In this document: positions 4,249 through 55,539 of the stretch, piece after piece
Layout of the letters: each line of letters opens with the position of its first letter
Numbering within the stretch: position 1 is the stretch's first letter
Sequence record: ON645936.1
DNA: 64,000 nt
Direction: 5' to 3' (one strand)
DNA from: Escherichia phage N2
Program-made: the position numbers and the translations under genes
Notes under the pieces: generated by a model
Told to the model about the DNA's origin: nothing
The model's input: the letters and a program-made list of their open reading frames with translations, nothing else
Databases searched by the model: none

Positions 4249-4527
4249 TCAAAATGTAATTTCTAACCAATCACCATCACGCTGATCACTATTGACTTTA
4301 AAGCTAAATCCTTCTTTTCTCAGCCAATCACCAATTTCTTCAGTAATCAATTTATCGCGAGCAGTGCAATAATAACTAAAATATGTTTTACCTTGCTCAG
4401 CTGCTTTATTAGCAAGTTCCGAAAAATCTTTAATAAAACACTCTAGTTTAAACTGTTTACTTTTAAGTGCTTTTTCGCGTAATTGATTAGCGAAAGATTC
4501 ATTTTCATAAAAATCATACTGTTCCAT
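4249..4527 (-). CDS. Hypothetical protein
   Basis: 92-aa ORF tightly packed downstream of rnlB on minus strand; no recognisable motif. Confidence 0.5.
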   Translation of the reverse strand: MEQYDFYENESFANQLREKALKSKQFKLECFIKDFSELANKAAEQGKTYFSYYCTARDKLITEEIGDWLRKEGFSFKVNSDQRDGDWLEITF

Positions 4528-4729
4528 TTTTCACCTTTTTATTAATATGTCTTTTTCTATAGACAACTTTTTCTCGAGTCTCAAATTTATTCTTAGCAGT
4601 CATAGCTCGAGCCCATAATACAGCCACTTCCTTTGCCTGTAAGTTCAATTCACGAGCAATTTCAATGAATGACTTTCCAGACTCATGGAGTGTAAACACC
4701 ACAACCTCAGTTCTCATAATCAATCTCAT
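4514..4729 (-). CDS. Hypothetical protein
   Basis: 71-aa ORF overlapping start of downstream ORF; basic C-terminus; no motif recognised. Confidence 0.45.
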   Translation of the reverse strand: MRLIMRTEVVVFTLHESGKSFIEIARELNLQAKEVAVLWARAMTAKNKFETREKVVYRKRHINKKVKNGTV

Positions 4730-4794
4730 GTTATCGAGTTAATGCCATTATATACAACGTTTTCTGATTGTGTTTTGCGTGCTTTCAAAATGAA

Positions 4795-4815
4795 GAAAGG
4801 GGCCGAAGCCCCTAA
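4795..4815 (-). terminator. Intrinsic terminator after hoc
   Basis: GGGGC-CGAA-GCCCC hairpin with U-run on minus strand. Confidence 0.65.
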
Positions 4816-4817
4816 GA

Positions 4818-5948
4818 TTATGGATAGGTATAGATGATACCAGTTTCTAAAGCAGTTTTATGAATGATGTATCCATTACGCGATTCTTGGACATCAACTT
4901 CTGGATAATCTTTCATCATCTTCTGGAGAGTGTAACGATGCAGGTAGTATTTACTATCTGGATCGTCAGTTTTCCAATCTTTACCTTCTTCAGTCATTTT
5001 TTGGATTTCATCCATAACCCACCAACCGCACCAGATGTAAGCTGAAGTACGATGTGGAAGAGGATGGACATAAGGCAATTCACCTTCTGGTTCTGGAGCA
5101 ACTTTATCAGTTACCTGAACTTGACCTGTTGCTGTAATAGTTTTGCTATCATAATCAGCAGCAGTAACAGTTGCAGTAACTTCAATAGTTTGACTTCCAA
5201 TAGATGAGGTATCAACTGTATATACATTAGTTGACCCTTCTACAGGAGAAGAATCTTTCTTCCACGAGTAAGTAATTTGTGCTTCTTCTGGAGCACCCGT
5301 AACATTAGCCGTAAATGTAGCCGAAGCATCTTTCTGAACGTTAATAGAAGGAGGAGTCAATGTAACCTGTGGATTCATTGTCTTCTTATTAACCGTTAAT
5401 GACACTTCATTAGAAGTAACGCTTAGTGCATCATAATCTGTCGCGGTTACTTGAGCTATACACTTGATTTTTTTAACTCCGCTTGTGGTAGGAGTGTAAT
5501 TGAATGTAGCGCTAGTTGCTTCGTCCACAGGAGAATCATCTACATACCACTGATACGTAGCAGATGCTCCATCAGGTTGAGAAGCTAAGGCAGCAGTAAA
5601 TTGAACTGGGGTTCCGATTACTCCAGCGTCAGGGTTATCAGGAGTTACAGCCAATGTAGTTGACTGAGTTTTATTTTTAACTGTGATAGTTGTTGTCGCT
5701 TCAGCCGTTTCCGGGCCTCCTTCAGAAAGTGTATTTGTTGCAACAACTTTAATTGTTTTTGTTCCAGCAGGTCCTTTTAATACATAATTAAAAGTTGCTT
5801 CAGCTCCATCTTGTGGAACATTATCTACGCTCCAAGCATATGTAATAGGTCCATCTCCAGTTTGACCACTGGGTGTAGCAGTAAACTGCTGAGTCTGATC
5901 TATAACTCCAGTAGGTGTTTTAGGAGTTATATCAACTGTAAAAGTCAT
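4818..5948 (-). CDS. hoc: Highly immunogenic outer capsid protein Hoc (Ig-like domains)
   Basis: 376 aa, T4 Hoc length and position between gene 24 region and inh; repeated Thr/Val-rich Ig-like segments; hairpin terminator downstream. Confidence 0.85.
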   Translation of the reverse strand: MTFTVDITPKTPTGVIDQTQQFTATPSGQTGDGPITYAWSVDNVPQDGAEATFNYVLKGPAGTKTIKVVATNTLSEGGPETAEATTTITVKNKTQSTTLAVTPDNPDAGVIGTPVQFTAALASQPDGASATYQWYVDDSPVDEATSATFNYTPTTSGVKKIKCIAQVTATDYDALSVTSNEVSLTVNKKTMNPQVTLTPPSINVQKDASATFTANVTGAPEEAQITYSWKKDSSPVEGSTNVYTVDTSSIGSQTIEVTATVTAADYDSKTITATGQVQVTDKVAPEPEGELPYVHPLPHRTSAYIWCGWWVMDEIQKMTEEGKDWKTDDPDSKYYLHRYTLQKMMKDYPEVDVQESRNGYIIHKTALETGIIYTYP

Positions 5949-24833: not shown

Positions 24834-25082
24834 TTACTTCAGTGTTACCACAAAGTGACGAACTGCTTTTCGTGCAGCAGAAGCCAGAGGCTTAGCATAT
24901 TTAAGTTCATCTTTTTCCTGAAGCTCAGCAGCTAATGCAGTTTGAGCAGGATTCAGATGTTTGAAATAACGCAGGATTTCAAGAGCTTCGGCTTCAACAT
25001 CAATAGATGCGCCATAGTTTTCGTGACCATTATTCCATGCGTTTCGTTGCAGTTCAAGAGCGTGTTGTAATTGTTTAATCAT
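24834..25082 (-). CDS. rIII: Lysis inhibition accessory protein rIII
   Basis: 82 aa, T4 rIII length and position immediately before gene 31. Confidence 0.7.
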   Translation of the reverse strand: MIKQLQHALELQRNAWNNGHENYGASIDVEAEALEILRYFKHLNPAQTALAAELQEKDELKYAKPLASAARKAVRHFVVTLK

Positions 25083-25229
25083 TTAAAAATTCTCGTTAGA
25101 GATTAAAACTCGGTAGTCACGTTCTTCTGAATTTCATCTTCTTTCGACAGATCTCTCAGTTGTAGACTACCACATAGAATTGTTCGGTTAACTTATTATT
25201 CCGACACCCAATTCATATTATTATTTATA

Positions 25230-27900: not shown

Positions 27901-28176
27901 TTAAATTGCTTTGAATTCTGATGTCTGCGATTCAAAACGAATATCGCCTTTGATAACTAACTCAGCATCAAGACCGAATACGACAATGATATGCGCAGAA
28001 CTTGGATACAGCGTAATGGCAATAGAATCCACCTGGTCTGGAAGCAAAGTGTTCAATACATGAGTCACTTGAGCATGAATTCGAAGCTCAGCTGCGTTAT
28101 CAAGTTTTTCAAACATATTATTAGCGATAATTTGGCTAAACACTACTTCTACGATTTTAGAGTAAGTCGGAAACAT
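27901..28176 (-). CDS. Hypothetical protein
   Basis: 91-aa ORF. Confidence 0.45.
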   Translation of the reverse strand: MFPTYSKIVEVVFSQIIANNMFEKLDNAAELRIHAQVTHVLNTLLPDQVDSIAITLYPSSAHIIVVFGLDAELVIKGDIRFESQTSEFKAI

Positions 28177-28240
28177 ATTTACCTCACATAATTTTCTTCA
28201 AGCCAATCAATAATAGACAAAGTTTCATGGTGCCAAGCCA

Positions 28241-29459
<1,219 letters not shown>

Positions 29460-29463
<4 letters not shown>

Positions 29464-29690
29464 TTATTTTTCTCAACCAATGATTGAATATAATCATGCA
29501 GGTCTTTAGATGCTTTACCCCACTTATTTTGGTATTCATTTTTAAGATTAGCACGTGATTGAGCTAATAAAACATCATTAGTTGGAGGTAAAGATTCTAA
29601 TCGTTGAATCTGACGTCCATAAATCATTGCAGCCATCTCGGATTCATAAATCAATCCTTTGAGATGTTCAAATTGATGCCATGAAATCAT
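29460..29690 (-). CDS. Hypothetical protein
   Basis: 76-aa ORF in coupled array. Confidence 0.4.
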
Positions 29691-29986
29691 TTACATTTAT
29701 CCTCTTTTAGCTCTTGACGATAATAACATATCATAGTTTTTTGGTCATGTACATATCGTTTTACATCATTAAGCCAAATACGAAATTCCTGGGAATCTTC
29801 AAATGGCATACCGACCCAAGCTTTACCATCAATAACTTTAACTTGCCAAGATAGTTTAGCTTCATCATATGACTTTATTTGCACAGGCCAATTAGGATGA
29901 ACTGTTTCTTTCTTTACTTCTAGAGGCTTTGTCGAACAACCAACTAGAAGACCAATAGATAATATTACTGCCGATAGTTTAATCAT
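29687..29986 (-). CDS. Outer-membrane spanin (Rz1-type lipoprotein)
   Basis: 99 aa; signal peptide with lipobox LLVGC; C-terminal Cys; adjacent to i-spanin-like ORF. Confidence 0.65.
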   Translation of the reverse strand: MIKLSAVILSIGLLVGCSTKPLEVKKETVHPNWPVQIKSYDEAKLSWQVKVIDGKAWVGMPFEDSQEFRIWLNDVKRYVHDQKTMICYYRQELKEDKCK

Positions 29987-30336
29987 TTAGAAAGGTCCTG
30001 GATGTCTTCTGCGAACTTGTTGAAGGAGTTGTTGATTTGTTTTTCAACCAATCCTGGCTTATGAGCCACCACATCCGCCTTCTTTGCGTCTTTGCGCAGT
30101 TTTTCATTTTCACGCTCAATAGCAGCAATTGCCTCACGATTTTTATTATTCATCGCATCAATATAATTATACTGAATTCGCAAATTATCTAATGCTAAAG
30201 CGTTTTCATTGGCTGTTTTTGTAATTTCAGTAACCGATGTTTCTAATCTTTCTACCTTATTTTTTAAAATAATAGATGTTCCGCCAAATGCTATTACAAG
30301 TAATAGCAATCCAGCTGTAAAATTACTTACATGCAT
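29983..30336 (-). CDS. Inner-membrane spanin (Rz-type)
   Basis: 117 aa; N-terminal TMD (FTAGLLLLVIAFGGTSIIL) followed by predicted coiled coil. Confidence 0.65.
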   Translation of the reverse strand: MHVSNFTAGLLLLVIAFGGTSIILKNKVERLETSVTEITKTANENALALDNLRIQYNYIDAMNNKNREAIAAIERENEKLRKDAKKADVVAHKPGLVEKQINNSFNKFAEDIQDLSK

Positions 30337-30833
30337 AAAGTTTTAATAACCTCTACAATATCGTCTTGAGAAAGACCGTTAATTAAAATATGATGTTCAG
30401 CCGGAGATTTAGAAATTTTAAAGCATGCCTCAACATCTTCTGCCATATCTGATGCGCTACGATTTGGATTACTAATTCCAAGACGATGTTTTCCCGTCAA
30501 AGGATTAACGATGATGTAGCATTTACAATTATTGATATGAACATTAGGTTGAGTCTGATTAATGAACACATCACAATCATATTTCGCAAGCTGATTTTCT
30601 AAAAAGACTTTCATCTCCTCAACCGCATCAGGAAGCATATCACGGGCTTGCTCAAGACGACGATTTCGATATTCTTTAATGGTCGTTTTCCGCTTGACTT
30701 GCTTAGCTAAATCTTTCTTAAGATCGGTGATATATCCAACTCGACGATTTCCTTTGAATACAGAAATCCCATCTGTAGTATCACCATATGCTTCAACGAC
30801 CATTTCAGTAGTAATAAGCTGTAAATCCATCAT
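30327..30833 (-). CDS. alc: Alc (host transcription unfolding/termination on dC-DNA)
   Basis: 168 aa (T4 Alc 167) directly upstream of rnlA; early promoter unit upstream. Confidence 0.65.
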   Translation of the reverse strand: MMDLQLITTEMVVEAYGDTTDGISVFKGNRRVGYITDLKKDLAKQVKRKTTIKEYRNRRLEQARDMLPDAVEEMKVFLENQLAKYDCDVFINQTQPNVHINNCKCYIIVNPLTGKHRLGISNPNRSASDMAEDVEACFKISKSPAEHHILINGLSQDDIVEVIKTLCM

Positions 30834-30856
30834 AAAGTCCTCATGTTATGTCAGTA

Positions 30857-30894
30857 AAATTACTATAACACAACACGAGGGACTTGTAAACAGC

Positions 30895-30897
<3 letters not shown>
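30857..30897 (-). promoter_or_regulatory. T4-type early promoter (GTTTAC-N18-TATAGT), minus strand, upstream of alc
   Basis: Near-identical copy of the 17170-17210 unit; followed by GAGGA RBS and alc ATG. Confidence 0.6.
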
Positions 30898-32482
<1,585 letters not shown>

Positions 32483-32502
32483 AATAAAATGGGCCTTGCG
32501 GC
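32483..32502 (-). terminator. Hairpin between nrdB and denA
   Basis: GGGCC-GCAA-GGCCC hairpin immediately after nrdB stop. Confidence 0.5.
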
Positions 32503-32509
32503 CCACTCC

Positions 32510-33688
32510 TTAAAAATATTTTTTAAAACTCATCATAACTTTATCATCAACATCATTATCAATCTGTGCTACAAGGTAAGATGACAGTTCTACTTCTTGT
32601 GGTGCAGATTGAACATTATCAGAATTAAGGTATTCACGAATCCAAGGATATGGATGTTTAACCGGAGCATCGGTAATTGGACATGGAAGACCACACTGTT
32701 TCATACGAGATACAGTTAAGTAATCAATAAAGCTCCACATGCTATTTGTATTTAATCCAGGAACATCGCCATCTTTAAATAAATGAACTGCCCAATCTTT
32801 TTCTTGGCGGTTAACTTCCATGAAAATATCAACTGCTTCTTGTTCACACTCTTGAGCAATTTTAACCCATTCATCACCATCAGTACCGGATTGAAGTTGA
32901 CGAATAATATATTGAGTGCCTTTAAGGTGAAGCTGCTCATCACGTGCAATGAACTTCATAATCTTGGCATTACCTTCCATGATTTCCATGTTCTTATGGA
33001 AGTTAAAGGTACATGCAAAAGATACATAAAAACGAATAGCTTCTAAGGCATTAATAACGTGCAAACAGAGGTAAAGAGATTTCATTAGTGCTCGTTTAGC
33101 TTCGGCTTCTTGTTTAATAGCTCGATTTAAACGAAAAACAGCATCAGGAGATTCTTTAGCTAGTTCTGTAAATTCTTTAGCATTTTCCCATTCACGGGTT
33201 TTAGTCAGAACATCATCATAATAGCGACCGATAGATTCAGCACGTTTCATAATAGCTTTATCTAGTACAATCTCATCAAATACCTTCGATGGATCAGTAT
33301 AAAGATTTCGCATGATATGAGTATATGAACGACTGTGAATAGTTTCACTAAAAGTCCATGTAGCAACCCATGTATCAAGGCTTGGGTCTGAAATTAATGA
33401 CATAAGTACAGCAGACGGCGCACGACCTTGAATACTATCAAGTAATGATTGATACTTCAGATTATTAGTAAAAATATTTTGTTGATACTGAGGAAGCTTA
33501 TTAAACTGTGCAGCATCCATCATCAAGTTTACTTCTTCCGGACGCCAGAAAAACGAGAGCGAACGTTCAATAAGTTCTTCAAATACTCGATGCCGTTGAA
33601 TATCATAACGCGCAATACCAAGACCTGAACCAAAAAACATAGGTTCTTTTAAAACATCGACCTGTTTAGTATTAAAAACTGTACTCAT
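32510..33688 (-). CDS. nrdB: Ribonucleotide reductase beta subunit NrdB (uninterrupted)
   Basis: 392-aa contiguous ORF with class Ia R2 diiron ligand regions; no intron gap; hairpin terminator after stop. Confidence 0.94.
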   Translation of the reverse strand: MSTVFNTKQVDVLKEPMFFGSGLGIARYDIQRHRVFEELIERSLSFFWRPEEVNLMMDAAQFNKLPQYQQNIFTNNLKYQSLLDSIQGRAPSAVLMSLISDPSLDTWVATWTFSETIHSRSYTHIMRNLYTDPSKVFDEIVLDKAIMKRAESIGRYYDDVLTKTREWENAKEFTELAKESPDAVFRLNRAIKQEAEAKRALMKSLYLCLHVINALEAIRFYVSFACTFNFHKNMEIMEGNAKIMKFIARDEQLHLKGTQYIIRQLQSGTDGDEWVKIAQECEQEAVDIFMEVNRQEKDWAVHLFKDGDVPGLNTNSMWSFIDYLTVSRMKQCGLPCPITDAPVKHPYPWIREYLNSDNVQSAPQEVELSSYLVAQIDNDVDDKVMMSFKKYF

Positions 33689-35280
33689 TATTTTGTCCTG
33701 TAAACTAAATTTCCACAGTCCCAGATTCTTCTAAGACCATTTGCATAACAATTTTCTACTTCAGTTATTGTATCATCATAATTTTTAAGCTTGTTTTTAA
33801 GCTTATGTTTCATATAGCTTGAGCGGTGAAATACCTCTCCTTTATCGACGTACCAATAACATGGCTCAGAGATATGACTAAATTCCATGACAGAGTCATA
33901 AACATTTGATAATGTACTGCACCATCTTCGATTGCCATAAGATAGACAATTAATTCCTTTTAATAATTTTGAGGCTCCTCCTACAACACAAACCCCTAAT
34001 TTTGAACACATCCTTAAAAGTTCATCACCTGAGCTATATCTAGATTTACCGATAGAAATAATTTGAACTAACTCATTATTGTAATAAAGTCCTTTATACG
34101 TATGAGCTCCTGAGCAAAATCCTTGAAGATGATTCTTATTAATAAATTCTTTTGCCTCATCCTTATTAACAAACCGTGCTTTGCATTTTCGGGCTGGTAT
34201 TCTTTCTGATAATCCTAATTTATGCTTTATAATGGATTTCCAGATCTCTCTTTTTGTATCATCAATCCATTCATTTTCGAAGATGTGAAGTAATTGAATT
34301 CCTTGTGCTTCACACATCTCTGTCTTCATCAAATGATAAGTTTCTTTAATTTTATCTGTTTCCTTTGACCCGCTAGAATGCCAATAAATTCCATCGTATT
34401 CTATAGCCAATTTTTTCTCAGGAATGTAAATATCTAATTCATACGGAGGAATAATTTTTCTAGTTTCTACGCAATCAAATCCTAGATCTAAAATGAATTG
34501 CTCTATAGAACTTTGAGTATAATGAACGTCAATTAGTCCTTTGGATGAAAGAGCTCTATAAGCCGTCATCCGAGAACAATTTGCTAATTGTTGTAGTTCT
34601 TCTATAGAAATTTTGTAATTGATTTTATCTAGTATATCATGATTAATATGACCGTTATTTTTAATAGATTTTCCTATAGATGAATATAACGATGCCTTAT
34701 ATTCTTCAGTCCAATTTAATTTAGTCTTCTTAGATTTTTCGCGAGATTTTCTAGAATGCAGAATATCAACTGATTTACCGTTTTCTATAACTTTTCTCGC
34801 TTCTTTCACACTTTCTAATTGTGAATTATGCGTTACCCCATATCGTTCAATTAAAGTTTTTCTATTTTTATTTCTTGAAATTTTTTGATGAGTTGTTCCA
34901 TATTTTTCTAAAGAATTTTTGTGTTGAAGTTCAGACAAATATTTTTTATATTTTTCTTTTCCGCCAAAATTTGTATCACGGCTTTGAATTCTCTTATCCG
35001 CGAAAAATATCCCTGCGCAGGATTTACTACATGTTGCTGGAAATACACGTTTCTTTGCTGTTTTCAGAGAAATGAAATTTCCACAAACTGCACATTTTAG
35101 ATCGTTAATGTCAATGCCTTCCATAATTTGGAACACATTGAGCTTAAAATCTATTCCATCAGTTAGAAGAGCTTTATCTTCTTCTGTTAGTCTAGATTTA
35201 AGTTTTTCTTCTCCAAATGGAAGAAACTTTCCGTTTTTGTATATATTATCAAACATAGCGTTATTCTTAGTTAACCACAT
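33688..35280 (-). CDS. Multidomain nuclease-like protein at the mobE locus (Zn-finger, YGxTH repeats, HTH-like, Vsr/DUF559-like PD-(D/E)xK motif, unknown C-terminal domain)
   Basis: 530-aa ORF; CAVCGN...CSKSC; EKYGTTHQK/ERYGVTHNS repeats; PYELDIYIPEKKLAIEYDGIYWHS nuclease-like motif; TAATG-coupled to nrdB. Confidence 0.6.
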   Translation of the reverse strand: MWLTKNNAMFDNIYKNGKFLPFGEEKLKSRLTEEDKALLTDGIDFKLNVFQIMEGIDINDLKCAVCGNFISLKTAKKRVFPATCSKSCAGIFFADKRIQSRDTNFGGKEKYKKYLSELQHKNSLEKYGTTHQKISRNKNRKTLIERYGVTHNSQLESVKEARKVIENGKSVDILHSRKSREKSKKTKLNWTEEYKASLYSSIGKSIKNNGHINHDILDKINYKISIEELQQLANCSRMTAYRALSSKGLIDVHYTQSSIEQFILDLGFDCVETRKIIPPYELDIYIPEKKLAIEYDGIYWHSSGSKETDKIKETYHLMKTEMCEAQGIQLLHIFENEWIDDTKREIWKSIIKHKLGLSERIPARKCKARFVNKDEAKEFINKNHLQGFCSGAHTYKGLYYNNELVQIISIGKSRYSSGDELLRMCSKLGVCVVGGASKLLKGINCLSYGNRRWCSTLSNVYDSVMEFSHISEPCYWYVDKGEVFHRSSYMKHKLKNKLKNYDDTITEVENCYANGLRRIWDCGNLVYRTK

Positions 35281-54309: not shown

Positions 54310-54861
54310 ATGAAAATCTATCATTATTATTTTGACACAAAAGAATTTTACAAAGAAGAAAATTACAAACCGATTAAAGGTCTTGGTCTTCCAGCTCATT
54401 CAACAACTAAAAAGCCTTTAGAACCTAAAGAAGGATACGCAGTTGTATTTGATGAACGTATTCAGGATTGGGTTTATGAAGAAGACCATCGCGGCAAACG
54501 GGCATGGACTTTTAATAAAGAAGAAATTTTTATAAATGACATTGGAAGCCCAGTTGGTATAACTTTTGATGAGCCTGGCGAATTTGATATATGGACTGAT
54601 GATGGTTGGAAAGAAGATGAAACATATAAACGGGTTTTAATTCGTAATAGAAAAATTGAAGAATTATATAAAGAATTCCAAGTATTGAGTAATATGATCG
54701 AAGCTTCAGCTGCAAATAAAAAGGAAAAATTCTATTATCAAAACCTTAAACGGTTCTTTGCTCTTTTAGAAAAGCATGAGCATTTAGGTGGTGAATTCCC
54801 TGCATGGCCTGAAAAAGAACGGAAGCCTTGGTATAAGCGTTTATTCAAGCATTACGTATAA
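54310..54861 (+). CDS. 38: Tail fibre assembly chaperone gp38 (T4 type)
   Basis: 183 aa; MKIYHYYFDTKEFYKEENYKP... matches T4 gp38 as recalled. Confidence 0.92.
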   Translation: MKIYHYYFDTKEFYKEENYKPIKGLGLPAHSTTKKPLEPKEGYAVVFDERIQDWVYEEDHRGKRAWTFNKEEIFINDIGSPVGITFDEPGEFDIWTDDGWKEDETYKRVLIRNRKIEELYKEFQVLSNMIEASAANKKEKFYYQNLKRFFALLEKHEHLGGEFPAWPEKERKPWYKRLFKHYV

Positions 54862-54864
54862 ATA
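54857..54864 (+). promoter_or_regulatory. Late promoter TATAAATA (holin t), inside 3' end of gene 38
   Basis: Exact TATAAATA 19 nt upstream of t ATG with AAAGGAGGG RBS. Confidence 0.7.
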
Positions 54865-54882: not shown

Positions 54883-55539
54883 ATGGCAGCACCTAGAATA
54901 TCATTTTCGCCCTCTGATATTCTATTTGGTGTTCTAGATCGCTTGTTCAAAGATAACGCTACCGGGAAAGTTCTTGCTTCCCGGGTAGCTGTCGTAATTC
55001 TTTTGTTTATAATGGCGATTGTTTGGTATAGGGGAGATAGTTTCTTTGAGTACTATAAGCAATCAAAGTATGAAACATACCGTGAAATTATTGAAAAGGA
55101 AAGAACTGCACGCTTTGAATCTGTCGCCCTGGAACAACTCCAGATAGTTCATATATCATCTGAGGCAGACTTTAGTGCGGTGTATTCTTTCCGCCCTAAA
55201 AACTTAAACTATTTTGTTGATATTATAGCATACGAAGGAAGATTACCTTCAACAATAACTGAAAAATCACTTGGAGGATATCCTGTTGATAAAACTATGG
55301 ATGAATATACAGTTCATTTAAATGGACGTCATTATTATTCCAACTCAAAATTTGCTTTTTTACCAACTAAAAAGCCTACTCCCGAAATAAACTACATGTA
55401 CAGTTGTCCATATTTTAATTTGGATAATATCTATGCTGGAACGATAACCATGTACTGGTATAGAAATGATCATATAAGTAATGACCGCCTTGAATCAATA
55501 TGTGCTCAGGCGGCCAGAATATTAGGAAGGGCTAAATAA
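54883..55539 (+). CDS. t: Holin T
   Basis: 218 aa; single N-terminal TMD (VAVVILLFIMAIVWY) and large periplasmic domain; TATAAATA 19 nt upstream. Confidence 0.92.
   Translation: MAAPRISFSPSDILFGVLDRLFKDNATGKVLASRVAVVILLFIMAIVWYRGDSFFEYYKQSKYETYREIIEKERTARFESVALEQLQIVHISSEADFSAVYSFRPKNLNYFVDIIAYEGRLPSTITEKSLGGYPVDKTMDEYTVHLNGRHYYSNSKFAFLPTKKPTPEINYMYSCPYFNLDNIYAGTITMYWYRNDHISNDRLESICAQAARILGRAK

Follow-up and report, generated by a model that had tools for sequence, protein, structure and literature searches.

A T4-type pair of separated spanin genes in the alc-pseT region of Escherichia phage N2

Between alc and pseT, on the minus strand of the Escherichia phage N2 genome, lie two small adjacent reading frames, one for a protein with an N-terminal hydrophobic segment and the other for a protein with a lipobox. 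An earlier note on this DNA, made from its letters, had read the two as separate i-spanin and o-spanin genes, far removed from the holin gene and embedded in an early region. Do they indeed specify a two-component spanin, do they serve some other envelope function, or is the resemblance fortuitous? The question was addressed within what we call the window, i.e., the whole stretch of 64,000 nucleotides that was analysed (sequence record ON645936.1).

Both frames announced for the interval 29687-30336 are present, on the minus strand. One, a 117-aa ORF at positions 29983-30336 whose sequence opens MHVSNFTAGLLLLVIAFGGTSIILKNK, is pseT.3, the gene for the i-spanin (inner-membrane anchor plus helical periplasmic domain). 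The other, a 99-aa ORF at 29687-29986 with the opening sequence MIKLSAVILSIGLLVGCSTK, is pseT.2, the gene for the o-spanin precursor (mature lipoprotein, 83 aa). The two genes share a single ATGA tetranucleotide at 29983-29986 (minus strand; junction sequence CTTTCTAAATGATTAAA), in which the TGA stop codon of pseT.3 overlaps the ATG start codon of pseT.2. Annotations of T4, PP01, PhAPEC2, SP18, STML-198, Mineola, LC53 and RB16 show this 4-nt overlap as well. As these four nucleotides are all that the two frames have in common, the architecture is of the "separated" type; the ATGA overlap probably couples translation of pseT.2 to that of pseT.3. The surrounding genes are arranged in much the same way. 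Upstream and in the same direction, alc (30327-30833, minus strand; PF17527 ALC, E 4.5e-92) overlaps the start of pseT.3 by 10 nt and, downstream from pseT.2, a 76-aa ORF starts again inside an ATGA overlap (29687-29690). Likely, this densely packed string of genes is coupled in translation. The gene order, rnlA-alc-pseT.3-pseT.2-pseT.1-pseT, all on one strand, is also that of T4; among the neighbours, the PseT polynucleotide kinase/phosphatase is recognised by PF25109 (E 1.2e-56), and RNA ligase 1 is encoded upstream.

The identity of the pair became apparent from alignment with the T4 spanin genes. In BLASTP comparisons, the 117-aa protein is identical to T4 PseT.3 (NP_049837) at 115 of 117 positions (E 6e-85) and the 99-aa protein to T4 PseT.2 (NP_049836) at 98 of 99 (E 6e-75), with the sole mismatch in the latter falling on X86, a position left ambiguous in the T4 record. 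Both genes are named "Rz-like spanin" in RefSeq. The PHROG families matched over the full length of each protein carry this same name: phrog_739 for PseT.3 (E 6.2e-38) and phrog_812 for PseT.2 (E 3.5e-43). These matches, together with the 98-99% identity to the T4 pair, uphold the assignment to separate o-spanin and i-spanin genes; the arrangement likewise proved to be that of T4, as the earlier note had maintained, down to the protein lengths and the order of the genes. A megablast search with the segment 29100-30900 returned 523 phage records with identities of up to 98.1%, nearly all of them from Tequatrovirus and relatives; the names in these records include alc, Rz-like spanin (twice), pseT.1 and polynucleotide kinase. 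Scans of both proteins against Pfam and NCBIfam produced no family above threshold and no curated model covers either one, so that family membership rests on the PHROGs, on identity to T4 and on annotation. The i-spanin did draw Pfam matches to Crescentin rod, DUF4446 and BRE1; these lay far under the gathering scores and were rejected, being read as a reflection of coiled-coil composition.

Inspection of PseT.2 revealed the elements of a lipoprotein precursor. Codons 1-17 (29936-29986, minus strand) specify a signal peptidase II signal peptide ending in the lipobox LLVG|C. The sequence VILSIGLLVGC, residues 7 to 17, fits a PROSITE PS51257-type pattern, a lysine (Lys3) occupies the n-region, Cys17 (codon TGT at 29936-29938) is the lipidation site and Ser18 stands at position +2; the call was made by this pattern test rather than by a trained predictor. 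Under the +2 rule of the Lol system, serine at +2 is of the outer-membrane sorting type. The 99-aa lipobox protein had thus been correctly recognised, except that "secreted", the word used for it, calls for a minor correction: the product is expected to be a lipoprotein anchored in the outer membrane, not a freely secreted protein. PseT.2 contains three cysteines, at positions 17, 87 and 98. The last two are periplasmic and fall within codons 87-98 (29693-29728, minus strand). A single-sequence AlphaFold2 model of PseT.2 was poor (pLDDT 51) and displays strands, then a helix, then strands. The predicted pattern agrees with the beta-alpha-beta fold predicted for T4 PseT.2 (PMC6139136), an agreement to which we attach no weight. 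A search of PDB sequences with PseT.2 gave nothing meaningful (best E 0.22).

The 117-aa product also conforms to its initial description as a protein with an N-terminal transmembrane segment and a coiled coil. Its best 19-residue Kyte-Doolittle window, with a mean of 2.24 against the usual cut-off of 1.6 for a membrane span, covers residues 6 to 24 (FTAGLLLLVIAFGGTSIIL; 30265-30321, minus strand); this, too, is a hydropathy test and not the output of a trained predictor. No second hydrophobic segment is found, and the a/d heptad pattern is strongest at approximately residues 24-55 (score peak 0.82, residues 24-53). In a single-sequence AlphaFold2 model (mean pLDDT 88), residues 6-24 are helical and part of a continuous helix from 5 to 91, followed by a second helix from 94 to 116; the break at 92-93 adjoins Lys93-Pro94. 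Published work ascribes two helices to T4 PseT.3, the first one only being prone to form a coiled coil (PMC6139136). PseT.3 contains no cysteine. One feature of the protein runs against expectation. The N-terminus, MHVSNF (codons 1-6, 30319-30336, minus strand), has no Lys or Arg ahead of the transmembrane segment, and the basic residues K25, K27 and R30 come after it, a charge bias opposite to that suggested by the positive-inside rule for an N-in/C-out protein. Hence, the rule alone would not predict such an orientation; a type II (N-in/C-out) topology is what the T4 complementation data described below would imply.

Could a lipobox and a hydrophobic stretch have arisen by accident in two chance or mis-called reading frames? 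In AT-rich phage DNA, short ORFs of some 100 aa occur frequently, and the lack of any Pfam or NCBIfam family match might be taken in the same sense. Comparison with relatives points the other way. A tblastn search with PseT.2 retrieved 1241 phage records, with identity ranging down to approximately 30%. Eight diverged loci were then compared: those of Mosigvirus PhAPEC2, Gaprivervirus SP18, Gelderlandvirus STML-198, Jiaodavirus Mineola, Winklervirus LC53, Cinqassovirus Aeh1, Pseudotevenvirus RB16 and the T5-like Myunavirus My1. In all eight, a helical protein with a hydrophobic N-terminus is encoded immediately ahead of a small lipoprotein gene. In distant genera protein identity is as low as 30-36% and the functional residues are unchanged. 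Alignments of 10 homologues from nine genera (T4-like and T5-like) show Cys17, Pro34, Cys87 and Cys98 of PseT.2 to be invariant, as are K93, P94 and L96 of PseT.3 (K93-P94-x-L96, inside the conserved C-terminal segment KPGLVEKQIN). All 10 PseT.3 homologues are hydrophobic at the N-terminus, and the coiled-coil part drifts freely among them. One would expect to see just this if what matters for function in the two proteins were the lipid anchor, the disulfide cysteines and a C-terminal contact region. Besides this conservation, the start/stop overlaps are themselves conserved, the PHROG E-values lie between 6e-38 and 3.5e-43 and both T4 proteins have been detected, by proteomics and with antibody (PMC6139136, PMC9697503). 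Conservation and published protein detection already refute the notion of chance ORFs, whose probability we regard as vanishingly small.

The same alignments brought to light a variation at the C-terminus. In two phages, Aeromonas phage Aeh1 and the T5-like Pectobacterium phage My1, the i-spanin carries an additional cysteine-containing tail (…CIMGAKKCK in Aeh1, L009:509-892; …CATGNSQYCP in My1, L010:545-913), which is absent from the cysteine-free T4-type protein. The disulfide arrangement may differ in these two branches.

The sequence features, orthology, synteny and residue conservation of the pair are direct observations, and we conclude with great confidence that pseT.3 and pseT.2 constitute the two-component spanin, of separated architecture, of this Tequatrovirus (T4-like phage). 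As a spanin pair of the T4 type has already been characterised, the finding is correct but ordinary and adds nothing to spanin biology. Its main value is in the correct annotation of the pair in a T4-like genome. In many deposited T4-like genomes both spanin genes are labelled "hypothetical protein", which makes the assignment useful for annotation transfer. In addition, a few records give the name "DNA helicase", "DNA metabolism protein" or "flap endonuclease" to a feature within the aligned stretch 29100-30900.

Some other peculiarities of the surrounding DNA were recorded along the way. A 106-aa ORF at 29143-29463 (minus strand), between pseT.1 and pseT, matches phrog_2364 (unknown function; E 2e-58) and has no T4 counterpart, positions 29144-29456 of the window being unmatched in the T4 interval 134000-140500. 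In PP01 the ORF is annotated as hypothetical; for RB32, a protein so labelled is listed somewhere in the aligned stretch. Since its start and stop both overlap the neighbouring genes, it is probably a real gene that was inserted or lost. On one side of it, pseT (28241-29146, minus strand) has just about 83% DNA identity to T4 pseT, whereas the neighbouring stretch pseT.1-alc-rnlA-denA (29457-33012) has 96.7% identity to T4; this step in identity places a mosaic junction at or near the 106-aa ORF. Further along, at about 33012-33015, the alignment skips some 600 bp of T4 (positions 4458 to 5059 of the T4 locus, L003), an nrdB stretch that contains the defective I-TevIII gene (L003 4594-4887). 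From this gap, nrdB of the present phage appears to be intronless.

The location of the pair raises the issue of when it is expressed. The earlier note had placed it in the pseT-alc early region. This is borne out by the classing of the T4 genes: pseT.2 yields an early RNA and an early protein, and pseT.3 an early RNA and a middle protein, as do alc and pseT (Wolfram-Schauerte et al. 2022 supplement, PMC9697503). Furthermore, the minus strand between 25229 and 38334, which takes in the 8 kb upstream of the spanin genes, contains no exact match to the T4 late-promoter motif, TATAAATA; matches with one mismatch occur at chance level (199 observed, 192 expected). From the T4 early classing and the absence of TATAAATA in these 8 kb it follows that the spanin genes sit within a prereplicative transcription unit. 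A scan of 28000-34000 for sigma-70-like promoters stayed at background level (25 found, 24.1 expected). TTTACA-17-TATAGT at 30890-30862 (minus strand), ahead of alc, is a candidate sigma-70-like promoter, and a loose match to the MotA box at 32071-32046 (minus strand), ahead of rnlA, is another candidate element.

Such timing might be taken to mean that the main role of the two proteins is not to disrupt the outer membrane at all, but, for instance, to exclude superinfecting phages, to stabilise the envelope while lysis is inhibited or to protect against lysis from without, with the spanin-like complementation of lambda as a side effect. The pair sits among host-takeover and nucleotide-metabolism genes, the spanin genes have no late promoter motif, and T4-type phages already make other early envelope proteins, Imm and Sp. 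The T4 orthologues are, moreover, transcribed and translated early, long before lysis (PMC9697503). Early synthesis nonetheless fits the spanin model too, since intact peptidoglycan keeps spanins inert. Also, the T4 orthologues are functionally fully equivalent to Rz/Rz1 and have a specific cysteine requirement (PMC6139136); the combination of a transmembrane protein and a lipoprotein is kept in nine genera, including a T5-like phage with different neighbours; and the part of the window that was searched revealed no further disruptor of the outer membrane. Altogether, we consider a main role of this kind very unlikely and favour the two-component spanin. A more modest variant would have the spanin complex, built early (as the T4 omics data indicate) and encoded among host-takeover genes, fulfil a second, pre-lysis role: bracing or tethering the envelope during lysis inhibition, or modulating superinfection. 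Our analysis provides nothing in favour of such a role, which we judge very unlikely. The lysis-inhibited state itself, a long one, is controlled by holin T, RI and RIII.

Where, then, are the partners of the spanins? The earlier note had located the holin gene at 54883 and described the lysis cassette as split across the window. The holin gene, t (218 aa), does lie at 54883-55539 on the plus strand (PF11031 Phage_holin_T, E 2.5e-117), that is, 24.5 kb from the spanin genes and on the opposite strand; a TATAAATA element at 54857-54864 (plus strand) ends 19 nt before the ATG of t. This lysis-timing partner is joined, as a third locus connected with lysis, by the lysis-inhibition accessory gene rIII (24837-25082, minus strand), identified by tblastn as 100% identical to T4 RIII over 82 aa. 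A TATAAATA match is also present at 25222-25229 (minus strand), approximately 140 nt upstream of rIII on the same strand. As to the endolysin gene, e, tblastn with an approximate T4 lysozyme query found no match in the window, which is consistent with e lying far off, as it does in T4. The description of a split cassette calls for a minor correction: phages of the T4 type lack a lysis cassette that could be split, and the endolysin gene is not in the window. In short, the genome carries the standard dispersed lysis set, with t, pseT.3/pseT.2 and rIII in the window and the endolysin gene elsewhere.

The T4 orthologues and the analogous lambda proteins suggest a plausible course of events. PseT.3 would insert in the inner membrane through its N-terminal helix and expose to the periplasm a long helix, coiled-coil-prone at approximately residues 24-55, followed by a hinge at Lys-Pro and a C-terminal helix that is short and conserved. 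PseT.2 would be exported by the Sec pathway, lipidated at Cys17, cleaved by signal peptidase II and, since position +2 holds Ser rather than Asp, delivered by the Lol system to the outer membrane, into its inner leaflet; PseT.2 dimers would become linked via Cys87 and Cys98. The C-terminal parts of PseT.3 and PseT.2 would bind each other across the periplasm, so that the complex would span this compartment through the peptidoglycan mesh. Complexes would be built early in infection, from prereplicative alc-pseT transcripts, and stay inert until holin T, made late, triggers and lysozyme removes the peptidoglycan. The freed complexes would then move sideways, collapse and fuse inner and outer membranes, thereby completing lysis. 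For this phage, the topology of the proteins, their contact surface and membrane fusion are what T4 and lambda would lead one to expect; both the C-terminal contact between i- and o-spanin and the disruption of the outer membrane have been demonstrated for the 98-99% identical T4 proteins.

The closest known system is the T4 pair itself, presented by Kongari et al. 2018 (PMC6139136) as the paradigm of the separated two-component spanin. In that study, T4 pseT.3/pseT.2, which are located away from t and e, complemented a lambda RzamRz1am (Rz-/Rz1-) phage, and the PseT.2 mutants C87S, C98S and the double mutant were non-lytic, showing both cysteines to be essential in T4. All of the sequence features on which the study relied are unchanged in the proteins of the window. 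As in T4, the proteins have 117 and 99 aa, the genes overlap by ATGA and are flanked by alc upstream and pseT.1 and pseT downstream, the lipobox and Cys87/Cys98 are the same and the i-spanin is cysteine-free. The differences amount to two conservative substitutions in PseT.3 (N26 for H, D50 for N), to Ile86 of PseT.2, where the T4 record is ambiguous, and, at the level of the locus, to the additional 106-aa ORF (29143-29463) between pseT.1 and pseT. None touches a known functional residue.

Resemblance to lambda Rz/Rz1 is functional in nature. Here as in lambda, an inner-membrane protein, presumably of type II, whose periplasmic domain is helical is paired with a small lipoprotein of the outer membrane, disulfide links of the homotypic kind are required and the T4 pair can functionally replace the lambda one (PMC6139136). 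The Pfam Rz/Rz1 models gave no match, the o-spanin being without any Pfam match and the i-spanin having only sub-threshold coiled-coil matches; the sole links to the lambda Rz/Rz1 side are two weak PHROG matches (E 6e-6 and 2e-3) of PseT.3 to other families of spanins. PseT.3/PseT.2 is a functional analogue of Rz/Rz1, not a member of the same sequence family. Unlike the lambda genes, those of the T4 type are separated and not embedded, and lie outside any late lysis cassette; the o-spanin is predicted to have a beta-alpha-beta fold, as opposed to being proline-rich or unstructured; and the cysteines are confined to the o-spanin, where both are essential (PMC6139136). Lastly, the pair shares with u-spanins of the T1 gp11 type an outer-membrane lipoprotein signal and a role in the same last step of lysis (PMC6139136). 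The u-spanin, however, is one protein that combines an N-terminal lipobox with a C-terminal transmembrane segment, whereas here the two anchors are on two proteins.
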